A stretch of 64,000 nt of DNA. Origin: Candidatus Nanosyncoccus sp. GTDB lineage: Bacteria > Patescibacteriota > Saccharimonadia > Saccharimonadales > Saccharimonadaceae. The notes below the pieces were generated by a model. That model did not search any database. It was not told the origin of the DNA and saw only the letters and a list, made by a program, of their open reading frames with translations. The stretch is from positions 10,179 to 74,178 of the forward strand of contig JAZQXF010000038.1 of NCBI GenBank assembly GCA_045632725.1, written 5' to 3'. This document shows, piece after piece, positions 1-50,583 of this stretch (position 1 is the stretch's first letter; each line of letters begins with the position of its first letter). The translations under genes and the position numbers were made by a program.

Positions 1-387
1 ACTATAAACCGTGTCATCTTCTTTAATGTTCATAATTTCGTAATAACCTATAGCCTCGAATAGCTTTTTGGCATCTTCTATATTTTTAACATCACAGCTA
101 ATTGCCCTCTGACTAATAATGTCGCCATTGTTAGCTATTTTTTTAATTTTATAAGTAATTTTTTGCGTAACGCTCTTTTCTCCTGTAATATATCTCAGAA
201 TAATTGCATTCGACAATATCTCTCTCGCAGTCATATTTTTAATATCAAAAGAACGCGGAATATAGTAATAATCATCCAACGAAAAGCTTTCTCTGAGTTC
301 AAATCCCCGATCCTCCAAGAAATTTAATAGCTCTTCCTTTGAACAGAGAACTTTTATAGTTACTTCGTTTTCTTCTTTTATAGACAT
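1..387 (-). CDS. CYTH-domain protein (CyaB-like class IV adenylyl cyclase / triphosphate tunnel family), C-terminus outside window
   Basis: Hand-translated open frame from ATG 387-385 to the window edge (129 codons, no stop): MSIKEENEVTIKVLCSKEELLNFLEDRGFEL...ILRYITGEKSVTQKITYKIKK...FEAIGYYEIMN. The pattern ExxIK / D.YY / LRxR / TYK / iGy fits the CYTH fold. Absent from the ORF track because it is truncated. Confidence 0.5.
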   Translation of the reverse strand, partial: MSIKEENEVTIKVLCSKEELLNFLEDRGFELRESFSLDDYYYIPRSFDIKNMTAREILSNAIILRYITGEKSVTQKITYKIKKIANNGDIISQRAISCDVKNIEDAKKLFEAIGYYEIMNIKEDDTVYS

Positions 388-409
388 TCTACTCCTAGCT
401 ATTCTATGT

Positions 410-450
410 CCTATATTATATGATAACATAACTATACCTACAACAGTAAT
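410..450 (+). repeat. P'' : degenerate third copy of the ychF promoter region
   Basis: cctatattata..ataactatacctacaacag is comparable to ccttatattata...ataattatatccacaataacag at 2653-2698, with an internal deletion. Weaker than P'. Confidence 0.45.
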
Positions 451-545
451 CTTGATTTTCTAAACCAACCAATGACTCCACATATACCTTTCTCTGTTGC
501 AGTTCAACTTCCAAAACCAAAATGGAAGAACATGAACATTCCTTT
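451..545. repeat. X module copy 1
   Basis: cttgattttctaaaccaacc is identical to 1062-1081. The next ~75 nt are ~65-70% similar (tccaaaaccaaaatggaagaacat versus tctcaaaaccaaactggaaatacat). Confidence 0.7.
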
Positions 546-554
546 GCGCTAATT

Positions 555-693
555 TGATATAATATAAATATCGAAGCACTCGCACGGCGCCGAAGGTACC
601 TACCGCGAGAGCTTCTTTTTTGCGTTATAATATATATCGAAAGTCCATCAGGCAACGCTGGACTAAAGTAGGTCGGGGCTTTCTTTTTTTATT
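555..693. repeat. R module copy 1 (~139 nt twin-hairpin punctuation module)
   Basis: Near-identical to 1636-1773. TGATATAAT, hairpin GAAGCACTCGC/GCGAGAGCTTC + T6, TTATAAT, second hairpin (AGTCCA/TGGACT inside GAAAG/CTTTC) + T7. Begins at the stop codon of the 696-956 gene. Confidence 0.85.
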
Positions 694-695
694 CA

Positions 696-956
696 CTAAG
701 CTTTCTTCCATCTTTTCAGAGTTGGAAAAATCTTAGTACAATACTCCCTCATTTGTTCATTAGTCATTCCAGCTTGCTCCCCAAATTGAGAGCATTTTTC
801 AATATATTCCTCCATTGAACATTTATCGATGAATTCGCCATCTTTATAGCACCATTTACAATAGTCAGTGTTTACGCTACCATCCTTTTCAGTGGCATAC
901 ATATCCTCTGAAGTTAGTGGCATTGCGCAACTTTGACAGATTTTAACATTATCCAT
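696..956 (-). CDS. small zinc-ribbon domain protein
   Basis: 86 aa with CxxC...CxxC (CQSCAMP...YCKWCYKDGEF), typical of the stand-alone putative zinc-ribbon family. SD-like gaagga upstream. Confidence 0.5.
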   Translation of the reverse strand: MDNVKICQSCAMPLTSEDMYATEKDGSVNTDYCKWCYKDGEFIDKCSMEEYIEKCSQFGEQAGMTNEQMREYCTKIFPTLKRWKKA

Positions 957-984
957 TTTAAATCCTTCTGTTATCTTGATTTAA

Positions 985-1058
985 ATTATACATCAAAATA
1001 TGTTATAATTATACCAATAATAACAGATACACAAGCTAGTTTTGAATTTAAAGATCGG
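985..1058 (+). repeat. P' : duplicated ychF promoter + first 18 nt of ychF (start codon decayed to TTG)
   Basis: attatacatCaaaatatgttataattata..aataacagata.cac...tTTGaatttaaagatcgg aligns with 2658-2732 (attatacatGaaaatatgttataattata...ATGaatttaaagatcgg) at roughly 80-85% identity by eye. Confidence 0.8.
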
Positions 1059-1061
1059 AGT

Positions 1062-1150
1062 CTTGATTTTCTAAACCAACCTATTTTTATATCCCGTTTA
1101 CTATCAAAATCCATCTCTCAAAACCAAACTGGAAATACATAAAAACAAAA
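1062..1150. repeat. X module copy 2
   Basis: See 451-545. Lies directly after the duplicated ychF promoter/start fragment. Confidence 0.7.
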
Positions 1151-1186
1151 AGATAGGACTCATCTATTCCGAGACAAGTCCTATCT
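1141..1186 (-). terminator. intrinsic terminator of the PD-(D/E)XK gene
   Basis: Stem AGATAGGACT/AGTCCTATCT followed by a T-run on the minus strand. Confidence 0.8.
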
Positions 1187-1208
1187 TAATAACTCTATTA
1201 TATCAAAA

Positions 1209-1631
1209 CTACTTCTTAAAATCAACTATTTTCTTTGTTTTTGTAACAATCTTTAACCACTTTACCCCCTTAGATTTATAAAACTGCTTTTCCAATTCTT
1301 GTAAACATTTAGTCTGATGAATTTTAATTCTATCTAAATCAATAATTACATTAGATGATTGCCTCACAGCTTTCTGCAATGTATTCTCTAGAAGCCATCG
1401 GCCTTTCCCTCTGGGGCTTTTTAATTCCCATTTTAACCCTTCCATAATAATATCAGGAGTTCGAACACCCTTTTTATCGCTTTTCGGAATCAATTCAACA
1501 TCAATCCCCATTTCAGTAAACAACAAAATAGTCTTATATTCATGTTTTTCCAAAATCACACCATTGGGAATTATTCTACCTTTTTTCATTCCCGACATTA
1601 TATATAAACTATCGCTATTTTTCAACCCCAT
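1209..1631 (-). CDS. PD-(D/E)XK-fold nuclease-like protein (resembles stand-alone REase-fold toxin / CdiA-CT-like domains)
   Basis: 140 aa. Motif GVRTPDIIMEGLKWELKSP matches PD...(D/E)xK. Followed by an intrinsic terminator at 1141-1186. Confidence 0.4.
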   Translation of the reverse strand: MGLKNSDSLYIMSGMKKGRIIPNGVILEKHEYKTILLFTEMGIDVELIPKSDKKGVRTPDIIMEGLKWELKSPRGKGRWLLENTLQKAVRQSSNVIIDLDRIKIHQTKCLQELEKQFYKSKGVKWLKIVTKTKKIVDFKK

Positions 1632-1635
1632 ACCA

Positions 1636-1773
1636 TGATATAATACAGATATCGAAGCACTCGCACGGCGCCGAAAGTACCTATCGCGAGAGCTTCTTTT
1701 TTTGCGTTATAATATATATCGAAAGTCCATCAGGCAACGCTGGACTAAAGTAGGTCGGGGCTTTCTTTTTATT
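1636..1773. repeat. R module copy 2
   Basis: Only a few mismatches to 555-693 (e.g. gaaGgtacctaCcg versus gaaAgtacctaTcg). Fills the whole gap between the JAB-like and PD-(D/E)XK genes. Confidence 0.85.
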
Positions 1774-2650
1774 TAGGCATATTATCCCACTGATATTTCC
1801 GAATAATCTCTTCAATGCAATCATCATACAATTTATCATCCTCAGATTCATTTCTTTCTTTCACATAAGACGCTTCAGAGAGTATTTTTGGACTTTCAAA
1901 AGTATAAGCCGGAACCTTTTCTTCTCCGCTTTGTCCAACTGATATAACACTCGTAATCTTCTTAAAACGATTCTGAGTTTTATCAAAAACCATACAGTCG
2001 ACATCACCATTCTCTGGCAAAACTATATGACAATATTCAAATTCGCCCTCATCGCGCCTCCCACGGATCGCCTCTTCCTGCAAAGAAAAGCCAACTAAAT
2101 CTGGTAAAGAATAGTTGCCATAAGATTCTGAAGCATTAGGATGTGTATGCCCAAGACTGACTAATGGTTTCATCCCGGAAGCCTTCATCTTATCAATATG
2201 ACCATTAATCGCTTGCCAATAATAAGTTAAAAGCATATTAAAATCCGCCGCCGAATCATCCGCCTCTAAATCAGGATTTTCATCATAAAACTTTCTCTTA
2301 AATTCGTCATTAATATCGATATCGCTACCAATTGCATTAAATAAATAGTTCCCATCCTGCACCCAACCCAATACTAAAAAAGAATGTTCTTTTTTGGTTT
2401 CAGCAGTTTTTCCCGCTAATTCCATCATTTTCTTATACACAGCATCGCTCATCACCATTGTTTTTCTAGAATTATCGATGTTTTCATGAAAAATAGAGAT
2501 TCTTGAACCTCTGTCTGCATCATGATACATTTTTAAGTTCCCAAGAATCTGTTGATTGTTGTTACCAGTCATCAAAGATTCAATAGTAGATATTACCCGG
2601 TCACTTTTTAAAAGCTCGCCAGGAGCAGAAGATTGGTCTATTGTTTCCAT
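1769..2650 (-). CDS. JAB/MPN (JAMM)-like metalloprotease domain protein
   Basis: 293 aa. Has an upstream Glu (KKEHSFLVLGW) and LGHTHPNASESYGNYSLPD, an HxH...SxxD JAMM-like metal site with non-canonical spacing. Leaderless-type -10 (catgTATAATataaggtATG). Confidence 0.4.
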   Translation of the reverse strand: METIDQSSAPGELLKSDRVISTIESLMTGNNNQQILGNLKMYHDADRGSRISIFHENIDNSRKTMVMSDAVYKKMMELAGKTAETKKEHSFLVLGWVQDGNYLFNAIGSDIDINDEFKRKFYDENPDLEADDSAADFNMLLTYYWQAINGHIDKMKASGMKPLVSLGHTHPNASESYGNYSLPDLVGFSLQEEAIRGRRDEGEFEYCHIVLPENGDVDCMVFDKTQNRFKKITSVISVGQSGEEKVPAYTFESPKILSEASYVKERNESEDDKLYDDCIEEIIRKYQWDNMPK

Positions 2651-2715
2651 ACCTTATATTATACATGAAAATATGTTATAATTATATCCACAATAACAGA
2701 TATCACAGATTGGTT

Positions 2716-3810
2716 ATGAATTTAAAGATCGGCATCGTAGGCCTCCCAAACGTTGGAAAGTCTACGCTATTTAATGCATTAACAAACGCTGGCGCTCTTG
2801 CCGCCAACTATCCTTTTGCTACCATCGAGCCAAATGTTGGCATCGTACCAGTCCCAGATGAACGCTTGGAGGTCCTCGCCAAAATGTACGATACCGACAA
2901 AGTCGTTCCCGCCACAGTCGAATTTGTAGATATCGCCGGCCTCGTAGCTGGTGCGAGCAAAGGCGAAGGTCTCGGCAACAAATTCCTCGCCCATATTCGC
3001 GAATGCCAAGCTATTTGTCATGTTGTTCGCGCTTTTAAAAATAATGATATAGTTCGCGCCGACAATAAGGTAGAAGATGACATTATAGCTCAAGCCAAAG
3101 AAGATATCGACATCATCAATCTGGAGCTTCAGCTTGCCGATGAGGAAACCAAAGCCAAAATTGAAGCCAAACGTAAAAAAGACCCCAACGATGAAAACAT
3201 CCCGTTCTTAACCGACAAACCCGTAATTTATATGTTTAATGTAGATGAACATGGTCTGACCGACCAAGGTTTGCAAGAAAAACTCTGCGATTTAGTCAAT
3301 GCAAGCAACAATCAAAATCGGCAACGGGTGACGGTCGTGGAGGGGGACCCCCAAAATCGCCTTAGCGATTTTGGGGGAGGAGAACGACCGGCAGGACCCG
3401 TTGCCCATAATAATTGCATTTTTATCAATGCCAAGCTGGAAGAAGAAATGTCCGGCATGTCTCGCGAAGAACGTAAAGAGTTTCTAAAAAGCTACGGTAT
3501 AGAACACGATGCTTTAGAAGAACTCATCAAAGCCGCCTACGACACTTTAGGCTTACAATCTTTCCTCACCGCCGGCAAAAAAGAATGTCGCGCCTGGACT
3601 ATCAAGAAGGGCTCCACCGCCCCACAAGCGGCCGGCACTATACATACCGATTTCGAACGCGGATTTATTGCCGCCCAAATCTGCAATTACGATGATTTAA
3701 AGACACTCGGTTCCGAACAAGCCGTAAAAGCCGCCGGCAAACTCCGCACCGAAGGCAAAACCTACATTATGCAAGATGGCGATGTAGTAGAATTCCGCTT
3801 CAACGTATAA
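2716..3810 (+). CDS. ychF: ribosome-binding ATPase YchF, carrying an in-frame ~29-aa palindromic-element insertion
   Basis: MNLKIGIVGLPNVGKSTLFNALT (P-loop) plus a C-terminal TGS-like ...GKTYIMQDGDVVEFRFNV. The ORF-track start 2641 reads through the promoter, so the true start is ATG 2716. Confidence 0.9.
   Translation: MNLKIGIVGLPNVGKSTLFNALTNAGALAANYPFATIEPNVGIVPVPDERLEVLAKMYDTDKVVPATVEFVDIAGLVAGASKGEGLGNKFLAHIRECQAICHVVRAFKNNDIVRADNKVEDDIIAQAKEDIDIINLELQLADEETKAKIEAKRKKDPNDENIPFLTDKPVIYMFNVDEHGLTDQGLQEKLCDLVNASNNQNRQRVTVVEGDPQNRLSDFGGGERPAGPVAHNNCIFINAKLEEEMSGMSREERKEFLKSYGIEHDALEELIKAAYDTLGLQSFLTAGKKECRAWTIKKGSTAPQAAGTIHTDFERGFIAAQICNYDDLKTLGSEQAVKAAGKLRTEGKTYIMQDGDVVEFRFNV
3320..3405 (+). 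mobile_element. GC-rich palindromic element (short form) inside ychF
   Basis: GGCAACGGG-TGA-CGGTCGT...CCCCCAAAATCGC-CTTA-GCGATTTTGGGGG...ACGACCG-GCAGGA-CCCGTTGCC. GC-rich island in an AT-rich gene. The frame stays open. Confidence 0.8.
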
Positions 3811-3866
3811 AAACAAGAAAAAGCAAGGTCCAAGACCTTGCTATAAAACGCTTCATTTCTTACATT

Positions 3867-4214
3867 CTACATAAACAAGAATTTATGAGCATCGTAGAAT
3901 AGTTCCACGCTCATCTTAGGATCATTGCCCCATGCAAGTTGAGTTATAATAAAACCATCTCGCCCACTCGCTGAGCTTTTAACTATAGCGATGTCATCAA
4001 GCGACCGACCAACCTCTCTAAGCTGCTCGGCCATCTTTTTATCCACGATATAGTGAACAATCAGCCCATTCTCCATCTCTGGACTTTCTGGTAATACTCC
4101 TTTTATAGGAGCAAATTCACATATATCTCCAGTACAGACATCATAGACATAAATTTCCTGGTTGGTAATATTTATTAGCCAATCAGAAAGTCTAATGTTC
4201 GCATATCTATTCAT
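3867..4214 (-). CDS. hypothetical protein
   Basis: 115-aa ORF with SD-like ggggg upstream and a terminator downstream. No recognisable motif. Confidence 0.45.
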   Translation of the reverse strand: MNRYANIRLSDWLINITNQEIYVYDVCTGDICEFAPIKGVLPESPEMENGLIVHYIVDKKMAEQLREVGRSLDDIAIVKSSASGRDGFIITQLAWGNDPKMSVELFYDAHKFLFM

Positions 4215-4314: not shown

Positions 4315-5268
4315 TTATAATATTTCAAACCAGTCCCTCACCACAAAATCTTCTCCACACACATCGGCTACCGCCAAAATCGGATTTAGTTTATTAAATT
4401 CCTTCCTAAATTTCAGAAATGATTCTGCCGCATAGCGCATCTGCCGCTGTTTCCTATTATCTACCGCCATTATCCCTCCACCGAAATCCGCATTTTTCCG
4501 ATATTTCACTTCCGTAAAGTAAATTTTATCCCCATACACCGATATTATATCTATCTCATAAAAATAAGTCTTGTGATTACGCGCTATAATCTCATGCCCA
4601 CACCTTACCAAATGTTCGCACACTGCATCCTCGCCACGATTCCCAATCTTTGTTGTATTTTTTACAACACTATCCTCTCGCGAGAAACCAGTTAGACTCT
4701 TGCATGGCTCAAAACTTCGCCGATGTTCCGGACAAATTCCAAATTCATTAATCGCCTTGCAATGTAATGCCGTTCCATATCCCACATGTTTATCAAATCC
4801 ATATTCGGGATATTTTAAAGCTATTTCATACATATACTTATCTCTTGCTACTTTCGCCACAATCGATGCGGCCGATACTTCCCTTATCATGCTATCTGCC
4901 TTTACCACCGTAGATACATAATTAGAAAGTGATGTATCAGCAAGAAAATTTACTTTTCCATCAATCACAATCTGCGAAAACTGCCTATGACAACCCTGCA
5001 CCATCTTTACTGCTCGCCGCGTTGCAAGCCTTAATGCTTCGGATATTCCTGCTTCATCTAACTCTACATTACTCACCCAACCTAGCCCCACCGTTGCTTC
5101 ATTTAAAATAATCTCACTTAATTTTTCACGCTTTTTTGCTGACAATTTCTTAGAATCCGCCAGCTCCCCAAACCACTCTTTTTCTTCATCCGGCAAAATT
5201 ACTGCACCCACAACAAGCGGCCCTGCTAAAGGGCCGCGACCAACTTCATCTATACCAAGTATTGCCAT
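4315..5268 (-). CDS. rnhB: ribonuclease HII fused to a YraN/UPF0102-type endonuclease domain
   Basis: N-terminus ILGIDEVGRGPLAGPLVVGAV... (RNase HII). C-terminal ~110 aa GEDAVCEHLVRCGHEIIARNHKTYFYEIDIIS...FTEVKYR matches YraN-like PD-(D/E)XK. Confidence 0.85.
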   Translation of the reverse strand: MAILGIDEVGRGPLAGPLVVGAVILPDEEKEWFGELADSKKLSAKKREKLSEIILNEATVGLGWVSNVELDEAGISEALRLATRRAVKMVQGCHRQFSQIVIDGKVNFLADTSLSNYVSTVVKADSMIREVSAASIVAKVARDKYMYEIALKYPEYGFDKHVGYGTALHCKAINEFGICPEHRRSFEPCKSLTGFSREDSVVKNTTKIGNRGEDAVCEHLVRCGHEIIARNHKTYFYEIDIISVYGDKIYFTEVKYRKNADFGGGIMAVDNRKQRQMRYAAESFLKFRKEFNKLNPILAVADVCGEDFVVRDWFEIL

Positions 5269-50506: not shown

Positions 50507-50583
50507 GGGGGTATAGCTCAGTTGGTCAGAGCATGCGTCTTATACACGCAGTGTCCTTGGTTCGAGTCCAAGTACCCCCACCA
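50507..50583 (+). tRNA. tRNA-Ile (TAT)
   Basis: Hand-folded: acceptor GGGGGTA/TACCCCC, anticodon arm TGCGT-CTTATAC-ACGCA (anticodon TAT), T arm CTTGG-TTCGAGT-CCAAG, CCA encoded. Confidence 0.8.

Follow-up and report, generated by a model that had tools for sequence, protein, structure and literature searches.

The 5' end of the conserved GTPase gene ychF is probably a site-specific landing pad for gene cassettes, which would be captured in an integron-like manner by a recombinase whose gene lies in another part of the genome. The evidence is a cassette junction that recurs at the same nucleotide of ychF in related genomes, together with empty sites, reciprocal attachment junctions and a clean cassette swap between near-identical strains.

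The DNA analysed here (the window) is a 64-kb stretch from the tiny genome of a gut Saccharibacterium (Ca. Nanosyncoccus-like), in which the array lies just upstream of ychF. It contains two complete cassettes (A and B) and the right-hand part of a third (C), which is truncated by the window edge. The features are as follows:

1-387, minus strand: cargo gene of cassette C, possibly CYTH/class IV adenylate cyclase-like, its 3' part beyond the window edge (open frame)
402-450, plus strand: P'', remnant of a P copy, adjoining X1 (alignment)
451-548, plus strand: X1, left end of cassette B (X profile, 50 bits; 20-mer; alignment)
555-692, plus strand: R1, consisting of R-a (555-621) and R-b (617-692) (repeat match to R2)
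696-956, minus strand: Zn_ribbon_2 protein of 86 aa, the cargo of cassette B (PF12674)
981-1061, plus strand: P', right end of cassette B (repeat finder, P profile, alignment)
1062-1150, plus strand: X2, left end of cassette A (20-mer; alignment with X1)
1150-1187, minus strand: predicted intrinsic terminator of the nuclease gene (minus-strand hairpin with a 16-pair stem and a T-run after it)
1209-1631, minus strand: F6, predicted 140-aa CdiA-CT-like PD-(D/E)XK nuclease gene of cassette A (PF18451; structure model)
1636-1770, plus strand: R2, consisting of R-a (1636-1702) and R-b (1699-1770) (repeat match to R1)
1769-2650, minus strand: 293-aa protein with no assigned function, the main cargo of cassette A (open frame without a family match)
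2654-2735, plus strand: P, the working copy, heading ychF (repeat finder, P profile)
2716-3810, plus strand: ychF, the target gene (PF06071, PF01926)

The first-pass annotation had described this succession of P, X and R modules, and the repeats between P' and P, X1 and X2, and R1 and R2 were all confirmed. The working P has a leftward -10 box (TGTATAAT in minus-strand reading) and a rightward TGTTATAAT, as well as a 5'UTR that contains AGATTGGTT. It also includes nucleotides 1-20 of ychF, with the proposed crossover region GGCAT at 2731-2735. The repeat finder matched P' to P in two blocks (981-1029 with 2654-2702, 49 nt, 90%; 1030-1058 with 2704-2732, 29 nt, 83%), and a P profile built from the upstream regions of relatives' ychF found only these two copies in the 64 kb (993-1059 at 56 bits, 2667-2735 at 64 bits). 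P' likewise has back-to-back -10 boxes, a 5'UTR and a ychF stub, and its identity with the real ychF stops after +20. It had been read as the promoter plus the first 18 nt of the gene; the promoter copy is there, but the stub is 20 nt long (1042-1061). Its TTG at 1042, taken at first for a decayed ATG, is a normal start variant that heads functional ychF in many relatives (e.g., L002, L010, L017 and L032).

Both X modules open with the 20-mer CTTGATTTTCTAAACCAACC, as noted before, which occurs exactly twice (451 and 1062; 0.01 expected), and they can be aligned over about 95 nt. X1 consists of the 20-nt right arm of an inverted repeat and an extended X of the 'AATGACTCC' subtype, and X2 ends the stub ORF after 10 codons (TAA at 1072-1074). 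R1 and R2 are about 97% identical overall (67 nt at 94% and 73 nt at 100%), and a 45-mer taken from R was found twice against 0.00 expected. P'' retains the leftward -10 region and TATACCTACAACAG and lacks about 35 nt, namely the left arm and the ychF stub. By itself it is below significance, as the P profile (E<0.01) does not report it. We accepted it as a degraded P copy only because it lies directly before the solid X1 (50 bits) and has kept TATATTATA and TATACCTACAACAG.

The consensus P|X junction forms an imperfect inverted repeat of 21-8-21 (fold dG -15.1, z -6), and the minimal X is only the 20-22-nt arm. No compensatory changes were found in the arms of P|X, so that they may serve as a protein-binding site, a hairpin, or neither. 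Read by eye, the ychF side of the target (+21 onward) weakly resembles the X arm. In the window, the left arm of P' is mutated (GCTAGTTT where the consensus has GGTTGGTT), the hairpin of the P'|X2 junction is weak (dG -3.1 vs. -15.1 for the consensus), and the P'' junction is probably dead. As both internal junctions are degraded, the cassettes of the window are probably fixed in place. The P copies, first described as decaying copies of the ychF promoter, are not simply that: every cassette arrives with a P of its own, which then takes control of ychF.

The same architecture was found in about 140 related Ca. Nanosyncoccus-like ychF loci. The X profile detected 157 copies, all but one of them on the plus strand, and wherever a non-terminal P copy of the relatives was read, it stops after nucleotide +20 of ychF and passes into X. 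We counted 140 cassettes with a median length of 933 bp; sizes range from 0.2 to 2 kb, concentrated between 0.5 and 1.5 kb, and a cassette has one or two intact genes. The cargo is diverse: the 92 ORFs of 73 cassettes were sorted into 54 families, of which 43 have a single member. The P at the end of each cassette has two perfect -10 hexamers (predicted promoters). The P-proximal gene points leftward, diverging from P, in 75 of 105 cassettes, its start codon about 65 nt upstream of the ychF ATG.

The cassettes behave as units. Between species, X, the cargo and the right-hand P reach 85-97% identity, which the left-hand P and the outer flanks do not, and the right-hand P was the closer one in 11 of 12 informative cassette pairs. 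One cassette is 99.3% identical between two species in which the adjacent ychF is only 77% identical, a case of horizontal transfer. More generally, one and the same cassette can be present in differing contexts from species to species. A decay gradient along the arrays, which would mark the polarity of insertion, was not found. Direct repeats of a promoter a few kb apart would also be expected if the ychF promoter region had been duplicated locally in tandem and had then diverged, without any mobility. This origin is extremely improbable, as it is already contradicted by the unrelated cargo between the repeats, by shared cassettes that are far more identical between species than the adjacent ychF, and by the empty sites and strain-level swaps described below.

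The first-pass annotation had proposed serial site-specific insertion, leaving a target duplication plus an element end, and a comparison of the ychF upstream region in relatives. Both empty sites and unrelated cargo were found there. In 15 of 68 species the site is empty: ychF has a short native promoter without X, and the conserved gene F3 diverges from it. In L006, L031, L032, L043, L094 and L135, short native promoters of this kind are joined to X at the leftmost junction, making it a true attL. The native promoter of L032 has been displaced onto X together with the stub, and a cassette-borne P now heads ychF. Compared with the naive locus L026, attL of L032 retains the native markers at +9 and +15, attR has the cassette markers, and native ychF sequence resumes at +21. 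This pattern places the crossover within a 5-nt window, GGAAT (ychF +16 to +20). In addition, in the near-identical strains L060 and L098/L130, whose flanks are 98.6-99.6% identical, one cassette has been cleanly swapped, with the boundaries on both sides within about 7 nt of the predicted crossover. Together with the P|X junction at +20 in about 140 loci, these findings bear out the proposal of serial insertion.

Could homologous recombination alone, without a dedicated recombinase, have produced these arrays? In that case, X would have been fused to ychF +20 once in the distant past, and the P|X(+R) repeats (about 100-170 bp) would serve as portable RecA homology after transformation. Saccharibacteria are naturally competent (PMC10633639), no recombinase was found, and three recent exchanges (L074/L080, L079/L135 and window/L141) end inside P, X or R. 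Since these end points lie within modules and not at the junction, part of the turnover is homologous, these three cases showing exchange between conserved modules. As the sole explanation, however, we consider it rather unlikely. The L026/L032 crossover lies in five identical bases with mismatches on both sides, which is too short for RecA; several different native promoters are joined to X at the same nucleotide, suggesting repeated primary insertions; in the strain-level swap, the boundaries on either side fall at the junction; and the 20-nt palindrome-forming arm as the invariant minimum of X would be left unexplained.

Site-specific capture at ychF would call for a conservative site-specific recombinase, most likely of the tyrosine type, which we infer to be encoded elsewhere in the genome. 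In agreement with the first-pass annotation, which saw no integrase or transposase, motif and profile searches of the 64-kb window found no recombinase and nothing resembling a tyrosine recombinase. None was present in the inspected cassettes (73 sorted into cargo families), no intI borders the arrays in about 140 loci, and no circular cassette or excision product was observed. A candidate is an Xer-like gene (F11) present near ychF in 14 loci, naive genomes included; in 13 of them it is conserved 3-8 kb upstream, and in the remaining one it lies 6 kb downstream. It scores 91 bits against the integron-integrase profile TIGR02249 (cut-off 265).

Xer-dependent modules are known from pdif modules of Acinetobacter plasmids and from IMEX elements at dif. 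They, too, are small recombinase-free cargo modules with short inverted-arm core sites, and their housekeeping tyrosine recombinase is encoded elsewhere, as proposed here. The ychF site, in contrast, has arms of about 21 bp around an 8-bp centre instead of 11-6-11 (XerC-6 bp-XerD) and no evident dif-like arms; moreover, all sites are direct, and the target is the ychF start, not dif. Minimal mobile elements of Neisseria exchange cassettes by transformation and flanking homology. Their conserved flanks permit whole-gene exchange in a competent organism, which fits the three module-internal end points, but they are not known to show the repeated junction, the target duplication and the few-base crossover, all of which the ychF array has.

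The arrays share several features with integrons and with integron cassette arrays lacking a nearby integrase (CALINs): a single chromosomal insertion point, one-orientation arrays of short, mostly single-gene, functionally diverse mobile cassettes, imperfect palindromic sites between them, no recombinase inside them, and toxin-like genes. Integrons recombine attI with attC through IntI; attC carries R''(RYYYAAC)/L'' and L'/R'(GTTRRRY) boxes, with the crossover G|TT in R'. The ychF site has no adjacent intI, by-eye reading found neither R'' nor R' boxes in the P|X consensus, and the crossover GGAAT lies beside the palindrome centre, not at the base, and inside the coding start of a conserved gene. 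Integron cassettes are also largely promoterless and are read from a common Pc, whereas each ychF cassette carries a predicted bidirectional promoter, regenerates the ychF promoter, 5'UTR and first 20 nt, and has cargo that mostly points away from the insertion point. With no intI, no attC boxes and a promoter on every cassette, we rejected a classical integron. A CALIN with P|X as attC, for which the only nearby tyrosine recombinase would be F11, far below the integron-integrase cut-off, is barely credible.

SCC and pseudo-SCC arrays at rlmH are gene-end islands that regenerate their target. As in these and in islands at tDNA and dusA, ychF is split and then restored by element-borne sequence, a displaced native fragment marks the far end, direct repeats of target fragments are present, and tandem arrays form by repeated integration, with integrase-less members presumably moved in trans. 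The islands differ in measuring 5-100 kb, against 0.2-2 kb, and in encoding their own integrase, which none of about 140 ychF cassettes does; in the ychF cassettes, the restored part also includes the whole promoter. The arrays might be debris of full-size integrative elements (prophages or integrative mobilisable elements) that entered the ychF 5' end as a tandem series, each regenerating the gene, and that later lost the integrase and most other genes by deletion. The geometry is that of target-regenerating islands, and the dusA islands are a known precedent for integration into the 5' end of a gene (PMC4482086). Nevertheless, such an origin is quite improbable: neither an integrase nor a remnant of one was seen in any of the 140 cassettes at about 140 loci, the sizes lie mainly at 0.5-1.5 kb, each cassette keeping one or two genes intact, and no full-length homologue of the X reading frame was found. 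Furthermore, the P|X junction was absent from 2.9 million viral contigs, and metagenome matches fitting the P profile are arrays, with ychF next wherever the contig is long enough. Tycheposons of Prochlorococcus (10.1101/2020.12.28.424599) are similar in that flexible genes of streamlined genomes are gathered at a few sites by repeated integration, newer elements pushing older ones inward and leaving partial target repeats, but they carry a tyrosine recombinase and replication modules, target tRNA genes and measure several kb or more.

From left to right, a cassette has X, a 20-22-bp arm that in most cases is lengthened to about 95 bp. F6 comes next in some cassettes, then R, whose one or two hairpin units resemble a promoter with a terminator behind it and lie on the plus strand throughout. 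One or two cargo genes, mostly leftward, separate R from P. P itself, of about 80 bp, combines a back-to-back pair of -10 boxes with a 5'UTR that has a Shine-Dalgarno-like AGG, and with ychF nucleotides 1-20. In the preferred reading, in which a recombinase acting in trans inserts the cassettes, P would abut X in a putative closed circle and create the imperfect 21-8-21 inverted repeat. This site would recombine with the ychF start, the crossover falling in GGAAT (+16 to +20). The incoming P would then drive ychF rightward and cargo leftward. The previous P would end up further upstream, where the new X arm would cap it and stop its stub ORF after 10 codons. Repeated insertion would build the array. 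Its cargo is further reshuffled when the conserved P, X and R modules undergo homologous recombination or gene conversion with one another.

R is a conserved module of the cassettes, locked in plus-strand orientation. In each unit, 7-8 nt separate an extended -10 box from ATCGAA(A)G, after which come a G+C-rich hairpin and a T-run. R may act as an insulator/terminator or as a small RNA gene. We lean slightly towards the broader view that ultra-small CPR bacteria possess an independent, integron-analogous capture system, in which self-contained cassettes replace the host promoter and start, the recombinase is unlinked (Xer-like or of a new family), and R modules are sRNA genes or insulators of the mobile backbone. 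If so, the first codons of an essential-type GTPase gene would serve as the equivalent of attI. Our literature search found no description of such an integron-like gene-capture site at ychF.

Among the cargo genes of the window, the zinc-ribbon label stands (PF12674, E 2e-28), and the gene recurs as array cargo at ychF in L040 (at rank 1) and L073 (at rank 2). The PD-(D/E)XK label is supported as well: F6 matches PF18451 (CdiA_C) at 50.3 bits (cut-off 26.6), its structure model (pLDDT 88) best matches 4g6v_A (TM 0.64-0.67, E 4e-6), and D60, E69 and K71 of the D...E-x-K motif are invariant across 30 homologues. F6 is therefore predicted to be a nuclease of the CdiA-CT type of B. pseudomallei 1026b. 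In the relatives, no other cassette gene is as common (22 of the 92 ORFs belong to the F6 family); in the cassettes read, it is situated between X and R. Toxin-like genes, as predicted from sequence, occur among the cassettes. For the partial gene at 1-387, the CYTH label is backed by TIGR00318 (E 5e-4), but this is below the cut-off, and Pfam gave no CYTH match. The 293-aa protein had been called JAB-like; we dropped this label, as no Pfam, NCBIfam, PADLOC or PDB sequence match was found and, by eye, the spacing of its H-T-H...S-L-P-D string is non-canonical relative to the JAB/JAMM motif E...HxHx7Sx2D. It has 28 homologues, and the four with source names all belong to Candidatus Saccharibacteria; the gene is about 99% identical at the nucleotide level to the ychF-proximal cassette of another species (L141). 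The terminator hairpin of the nuclease gene was also found 3' of a homologue outside any array (L140).

Direct reading of positions 1-4200 gave the same layout upstream of ychF as the first-pass annotation had claimed. Genes alternate here with three kinds of module: P, the right end of a cassette (a copy of the ychF promoter, the 5'UTR and the first 20 nt of ychF, called the stub); X, the left end, with a 20-nt arm; and R, a hairpin module consisting of two units, R-a and R-b.

Features at the 5' end of ychF in the window
1-387, minus strand, partial gene of cassette C (direct reading)
402-450, P'', a degraded promoter-like stretch, about 35 nt short of a normal P
451-548, X1 (direct reading)
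555-692, R1 (direct reading, repeat finder)
696-956, minus strand, Zn_ribbon_2 gene (PF12674)
981-1061, P' (repeat finder against P)
1062-1150, X2 (direct reading)
1150-1187, minus strand, terminator (direct reading)
1209-1631, minus strand, 140-aa gene (PF18451)
1636-1770, R2 (repeat finder against R1)
1769-2650, minus strand, 293-aa gene
2654-2735, P, which runs into ychF
2716-3810, ychF (PF06071 and PF01926)
1062-2735, cassette A: X2, terminator, nuclease, R2, 293-aa gene, P
451-1061, cassette B: X1, R1, zinc ribbon, P'
up to 450, cassette C: right end at 450, the rest cut off by the window edge

The claimed P', X and R repeats were recovered by the repeat finder: P' and P share 49 nt at 90% and 29 nt at 83% identity, the starts of X1 and X2 share 24 nt at 96%, and R1 and R2 share 67 nt at 94% and 73 nt at 100%. 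The X 20-mer occurs exactly twice in 64 kb (0.01 expected), as does a 45-mer of R (0.00 expected). P'' had also been described as a P copy. Its place directly before X1 supports this, but on its own it is not significant against the P profile and lacks part of the normal length; it is credible because of its position only and is the weak element of the layout. Both internal junctions of the window are probably inactive, since the left arm of P'|X2 is mutated (dG -3.1) and P''|X1 has lost both left arm and stub. PADLOC defence models gave no matches.

Scanning with the YchF protein yielded 80 flanked species-level loci and assigned the window to Saccharibacteria of gut and rumen, namely Candidatus Nanosyncoccus and its relatives. 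In many of these loci, a profile of the ychF-upstream region detected 2 to 8 P copies upstream of ychF. Of the copies read, all non-terminal ones break at one nucleotide, after ATGAATTTAAAGATCGGAAT (ychF +20), and then run into CTTGAATTTCTAAACCAACC, the 20-mer already noted in the first-pass annotation. The X profile found 157 copies in loci L001-L139 and the window, 156 of them on the plus strand. With a degenerate junction pattern, 59 further metagenome stretches were retrieved; those that also matched the P profile are arrays, with ychF next wherever the contig is long enough. The same pattern detected no P|X junction in viral contigs, and searching for the X-arm motif outside arrays gave chance matches only. 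P copies have the orientation of ychF in all cases but one, which lies in an inverted segment of L074. There, the P|X junction and the adjoining F12 cassette (3201-3790, compared with 7985-8569 of L080) are inverted, and the upstream flank with families F11 and F3 is inverted too; we therefore interpret this as an inversion with one end at the array site.

Together, the beginning of X and the preceding 3' part of P make up an imperfect inverted repeat, AGGTTGGTTATGAATTTAAAG - ATCGGAAT - CTTGAATTTCTAAACCAACCT, which is the best-conserved portion of the repeat unit. Folded as single-stranded DNA, the P|X consensus reaches -15.1 kcal/mol (z -6). In the smallest cassettes X is reduced to the 20-22-nt arm alone; 16 X-profile matches end within the first 40 positions, and 14 more junctions have no X-profile match at all. 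No covariation was seen in the arms of the inverted repeat, and as the set was chosen by a pattern fixing part of the right arm, arm asymmetry is not interpretable. Junction hairpin stability showed no decay trend with the place of the cassette in the array (rho 0.14, p 0.23), and Rfam contained no match for P, X or R. Within P, a perfect -10 hexamer on the minus strand (TGTATAAT) stands back to back with a second perfect one on the plus strand (TGTTATAAT). At the displaced ychF start (1042-1074 in the window, and every P|X of the relatives), X closes the stub after 10 codons, with the consensus peptide MNLKIGILNF. The minus strand of X reads ...FGFGKWILIENGIKETGWFRNSRFRSLNS followed by a stop, in a frame that is sometimes open for 50-85 codons and is annotated as a 62-79-aa protein in five assemblies. 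The possibility that X is the leftover 3' end of some former gene, for example an integrase, was rejected, because the frames do not exceed 85 aa and are often broken, and only five tiny ORFs match among 5.8 billion proteins.

The chromosomal left flank is conserved (gene families F5-F4-F2-F3). Among the 68 species with enough upstream sequence, 40 have at least one X, while 15 lack X and have a short native promoter (TATAAT-AACAGAT-ATG); in these, F3 is typically the immediate or a close upstream neighbor of ychF. In the ychF tree, these naive genomes and the array-bearing genomes are interspersed. The native arrangement of TATAAT, 7 nt and ATG (L009, L023, L025, L044, L045 and others) suggests a leaderless ychF mRNA, and the cassette-borne P adds a 5'UTR of approximately 40 nt with AGG 6 nt before the start codon. 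Most X copies that are not preceded by a long P follow a short native promoter and the 20-nt stub instead (for example L006, L031, L032, L043, L094 and L135).

Cassettes common to several species are 85-97% identical in X, cargo and right-hand P, but not in the left-hand P and the outer flanks; of 12 informative pairs, 11 are more alike in the right-hand than in the left-hand P. One cassette can occupy different ranks in different arrays, and L074 and L080 share a cassette with 99.3% identity next to ychF genes with 77%. The 293-aa cargo of the window is about 99% identical to that of L141, from another species (protein homologue 98% identical), and beyond the first cassette the two arrays differ. 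L040 and L073 also carry the zinc-ribbon cargo in their arrays. Searches for exact matches to three proteins of the window had no result.

Three recent exchanges left a near-identical block whose limits fall elsewhere than at the junction. In L074/L080 the block begins some 48 nt into X and stops some 25 nt short of the ATG; in L079/L135 it covers only the cargo; and in window/L141, where the stretch between X and R holds a nuclease module of another subfamily and orientation, it runs from inside R-b to just past the -10 box of P. These module-internal exchanges look like homologous exchange or gene conversion between conserved modules, which is plausible because a Saccharibacteria lineage was shown to be naturally competent (PMC10633639). 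Both observations also favor the main rival explanation, according to which cassettes turn over by homologous recombination alone. That explanation is, however, unable to account for two other comparisons. L032 and the naive L026 are about 96% identical from ychF onward. In a three-site alignment, L026 reads native promoter - ATGAATTTGAAGATTGGAAT - TGTGGGATTACC..., the distal site of L032 reads L026-type native promoter - ATGAATTTGAAAATTGGAAT - X, and its proximal site reads cassette-type P - TTGAATTTAAAGATCGGAAT - TGTGGGATTACC... The markers +1, +9 and +15 remain with their parent, which, judged from this alignment, places the exchange within GGAAT (+16 to +20), as a reciprocal and conservative event. 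Five identical bases between mismatches cannot support RecA-type recombination. The second, independent case is L060 compared with L098 and L130: the flanks are 98.6-99.6% identical and the ychF-adjacent cassettes unrelated, with divergence beginning by X position 7 on the left and ending at ychF +15 on the right. We rate the ychF-start arrays as probable site-specific cassette arrays.

No recombinase was found among the cassettes. In the 64-kb window, neither the profile of F11 nor crude motifs revealed one (the motifs, a crude test, gave two weak, non-specific matches), in agreement with the first-pass annotation, which had seen no integrase there. F11, a conserved, Xer-like family, is the only tyrosine recombinase seen near arrays and scores below every NCBIfam cut-off, including that of integron integrases. 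Its gene is found upstream of ychF in 13 loci, at a distance of 3-8 kb, and downstream in a 14th, 6 kb away. F11 was rejected as a linked integrase, as it also occurs in naive genomes, shows no correlation with arrays and is missing from the window; it is a candidate, at most, for acting on the cassettes in trans.

The 140 P-to-P intervals have a median of 933 bp (range 198-6076 bp), and most cassettes contain one or two genes. In 75 of 105 cassettes the P-adjacent gene points away from P, and the median distance between its start codon and the cassette end is 85 nt, which puts the start codon about 65 nt before the ychF ATG. Relatives differ in cargo as well as in having empty sites, the two comparisons named in the first-pass annotation: the 92 ORFs of 73 cassettes from species genomes fall into 54 families, 43 of them singletons. 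Recognized cargo includes MazG, a serine hydrolase and a Cu-oxidase_4 protein, to which our reading of the sequences adds HD, GNAT, NUDIX and methyltransferase proteins. By the same kind of reading, the largest cassette (6 kb; L002, 2336-8412) has one peptidase-like gene along with two each of class II aminoacyl-tRNA-synthetase-like and radical-SAM genes, and may represent a small biosynthetic cluster.

With 22 of the 92 ORFs, F6, the family of the 140-aa protein of the window, is the most frequent cassette gene. In the cassettes read, it is located between X and R, in either orientation, and forms two subfamilies. The only strong structural match of the 140-aa model (pLDDT 88) is 4g6v_A, the CdiA-CT toxin of B. 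pseudomallei, and D60, E69 and K71 are invariant among the homologues. A role as an addiction-type toxin, as in large integrons, would be speculation. A homologue with 87% identity lies outside any ychF array (L140, 10001-10470), next to two tRNA genes and genes of the arginine-deiminase pathway; its terminator hairpin is the one seen in the window, and nuclease gene and terminator seem to travel as one unit.

Each R unit comprises a conserved extended -10 box, 7-8 nt, ATCGAA(A)G, a G+C-rich hairpin and a T-run. About 24 copies each of R-a and R-b were found in the loci, all on the plus strand; the mapped copies all lie upstream of ychF, and the window has only two of each. R occupies one of two positions: approximately 100 nt from the left end of the cassette, immediately behind X, or approximately 520-700 nt from it, where in the cassettes read R directly follows the nuclease gene that comes after X. 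Compensatory changes are few in R-a (4 of 14 pairs) and almost absent in R-b. In the simplest reading, R would be an insulator, ending transcription that starts at the displaced P and would otherwise enter the cargo in antisense direction. Because the -10 boxes are conserved, the units may also be transcribed as hairpin RNAs of about 50 nt; a search for their targets by complementarity gave self matches only and was uninformative.

The arrays bear on how Saccharibacteria, with genomes below 1 Mb, gain and replace accessory genes. They represent a dedicated hot spot, present in no fewer than 40 of 68 species-level genomes of a single gut clade, where unrelated small genes by the dozen, among them enzymes, membrane proteins and toxin-like nucleases, are inserted and swapped as ready-to-express units. 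Such an array works like an integron, yet three of the four features listed as integron-defining are lacking. Islands that regenerate their target gene have a similar geometry, but their integrase is absent here. In the literature searched, we found no description of ychF-start cassette arrays. If the mechanism is true, it would be a second answer, evolved independently, to the problem that integrons solve, with another site logic, in which the cassette hijacks and then restores the start of an essential gene. It would also indicate a new recombinase and att-site pair, and offer a natural landing pad for engineering bacteria that only recently became genetically tractable.

The ychF gene of the window contains an in-frame, G+C-rich, nearly palindromic insert of approximately 105 nt (3309-3416, GGCAACGGGT...ACCCGTTGCC; arms named I4), resembling the in-frame palindromic elements of Rickettsia. 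In most relatives ychF has 987 nt and lacks it; some have inserts of other lengths, and those of L012 and L024 lie at a similar position with short matches to that of the window. Directly 3' of ychF, a 115-aa ORF (3867-4214, minus strand) has no family match and belongs to F21, which in L057, L062, L072 and L076 is found upstream of ychF, within or adjoining the array region; the downstream side of ychF is likewise variable among species. The window also encodes a tRNA-Ile with a UAU anticodon, uncommon in bacteria (50507-50583), and a 317-aa ORF (4315-5268, minus strand) that appears to be a fusion of RNase HII and a YraN/UPF0102-like domain; its L141 homologue has both PF01351 and PF02021.
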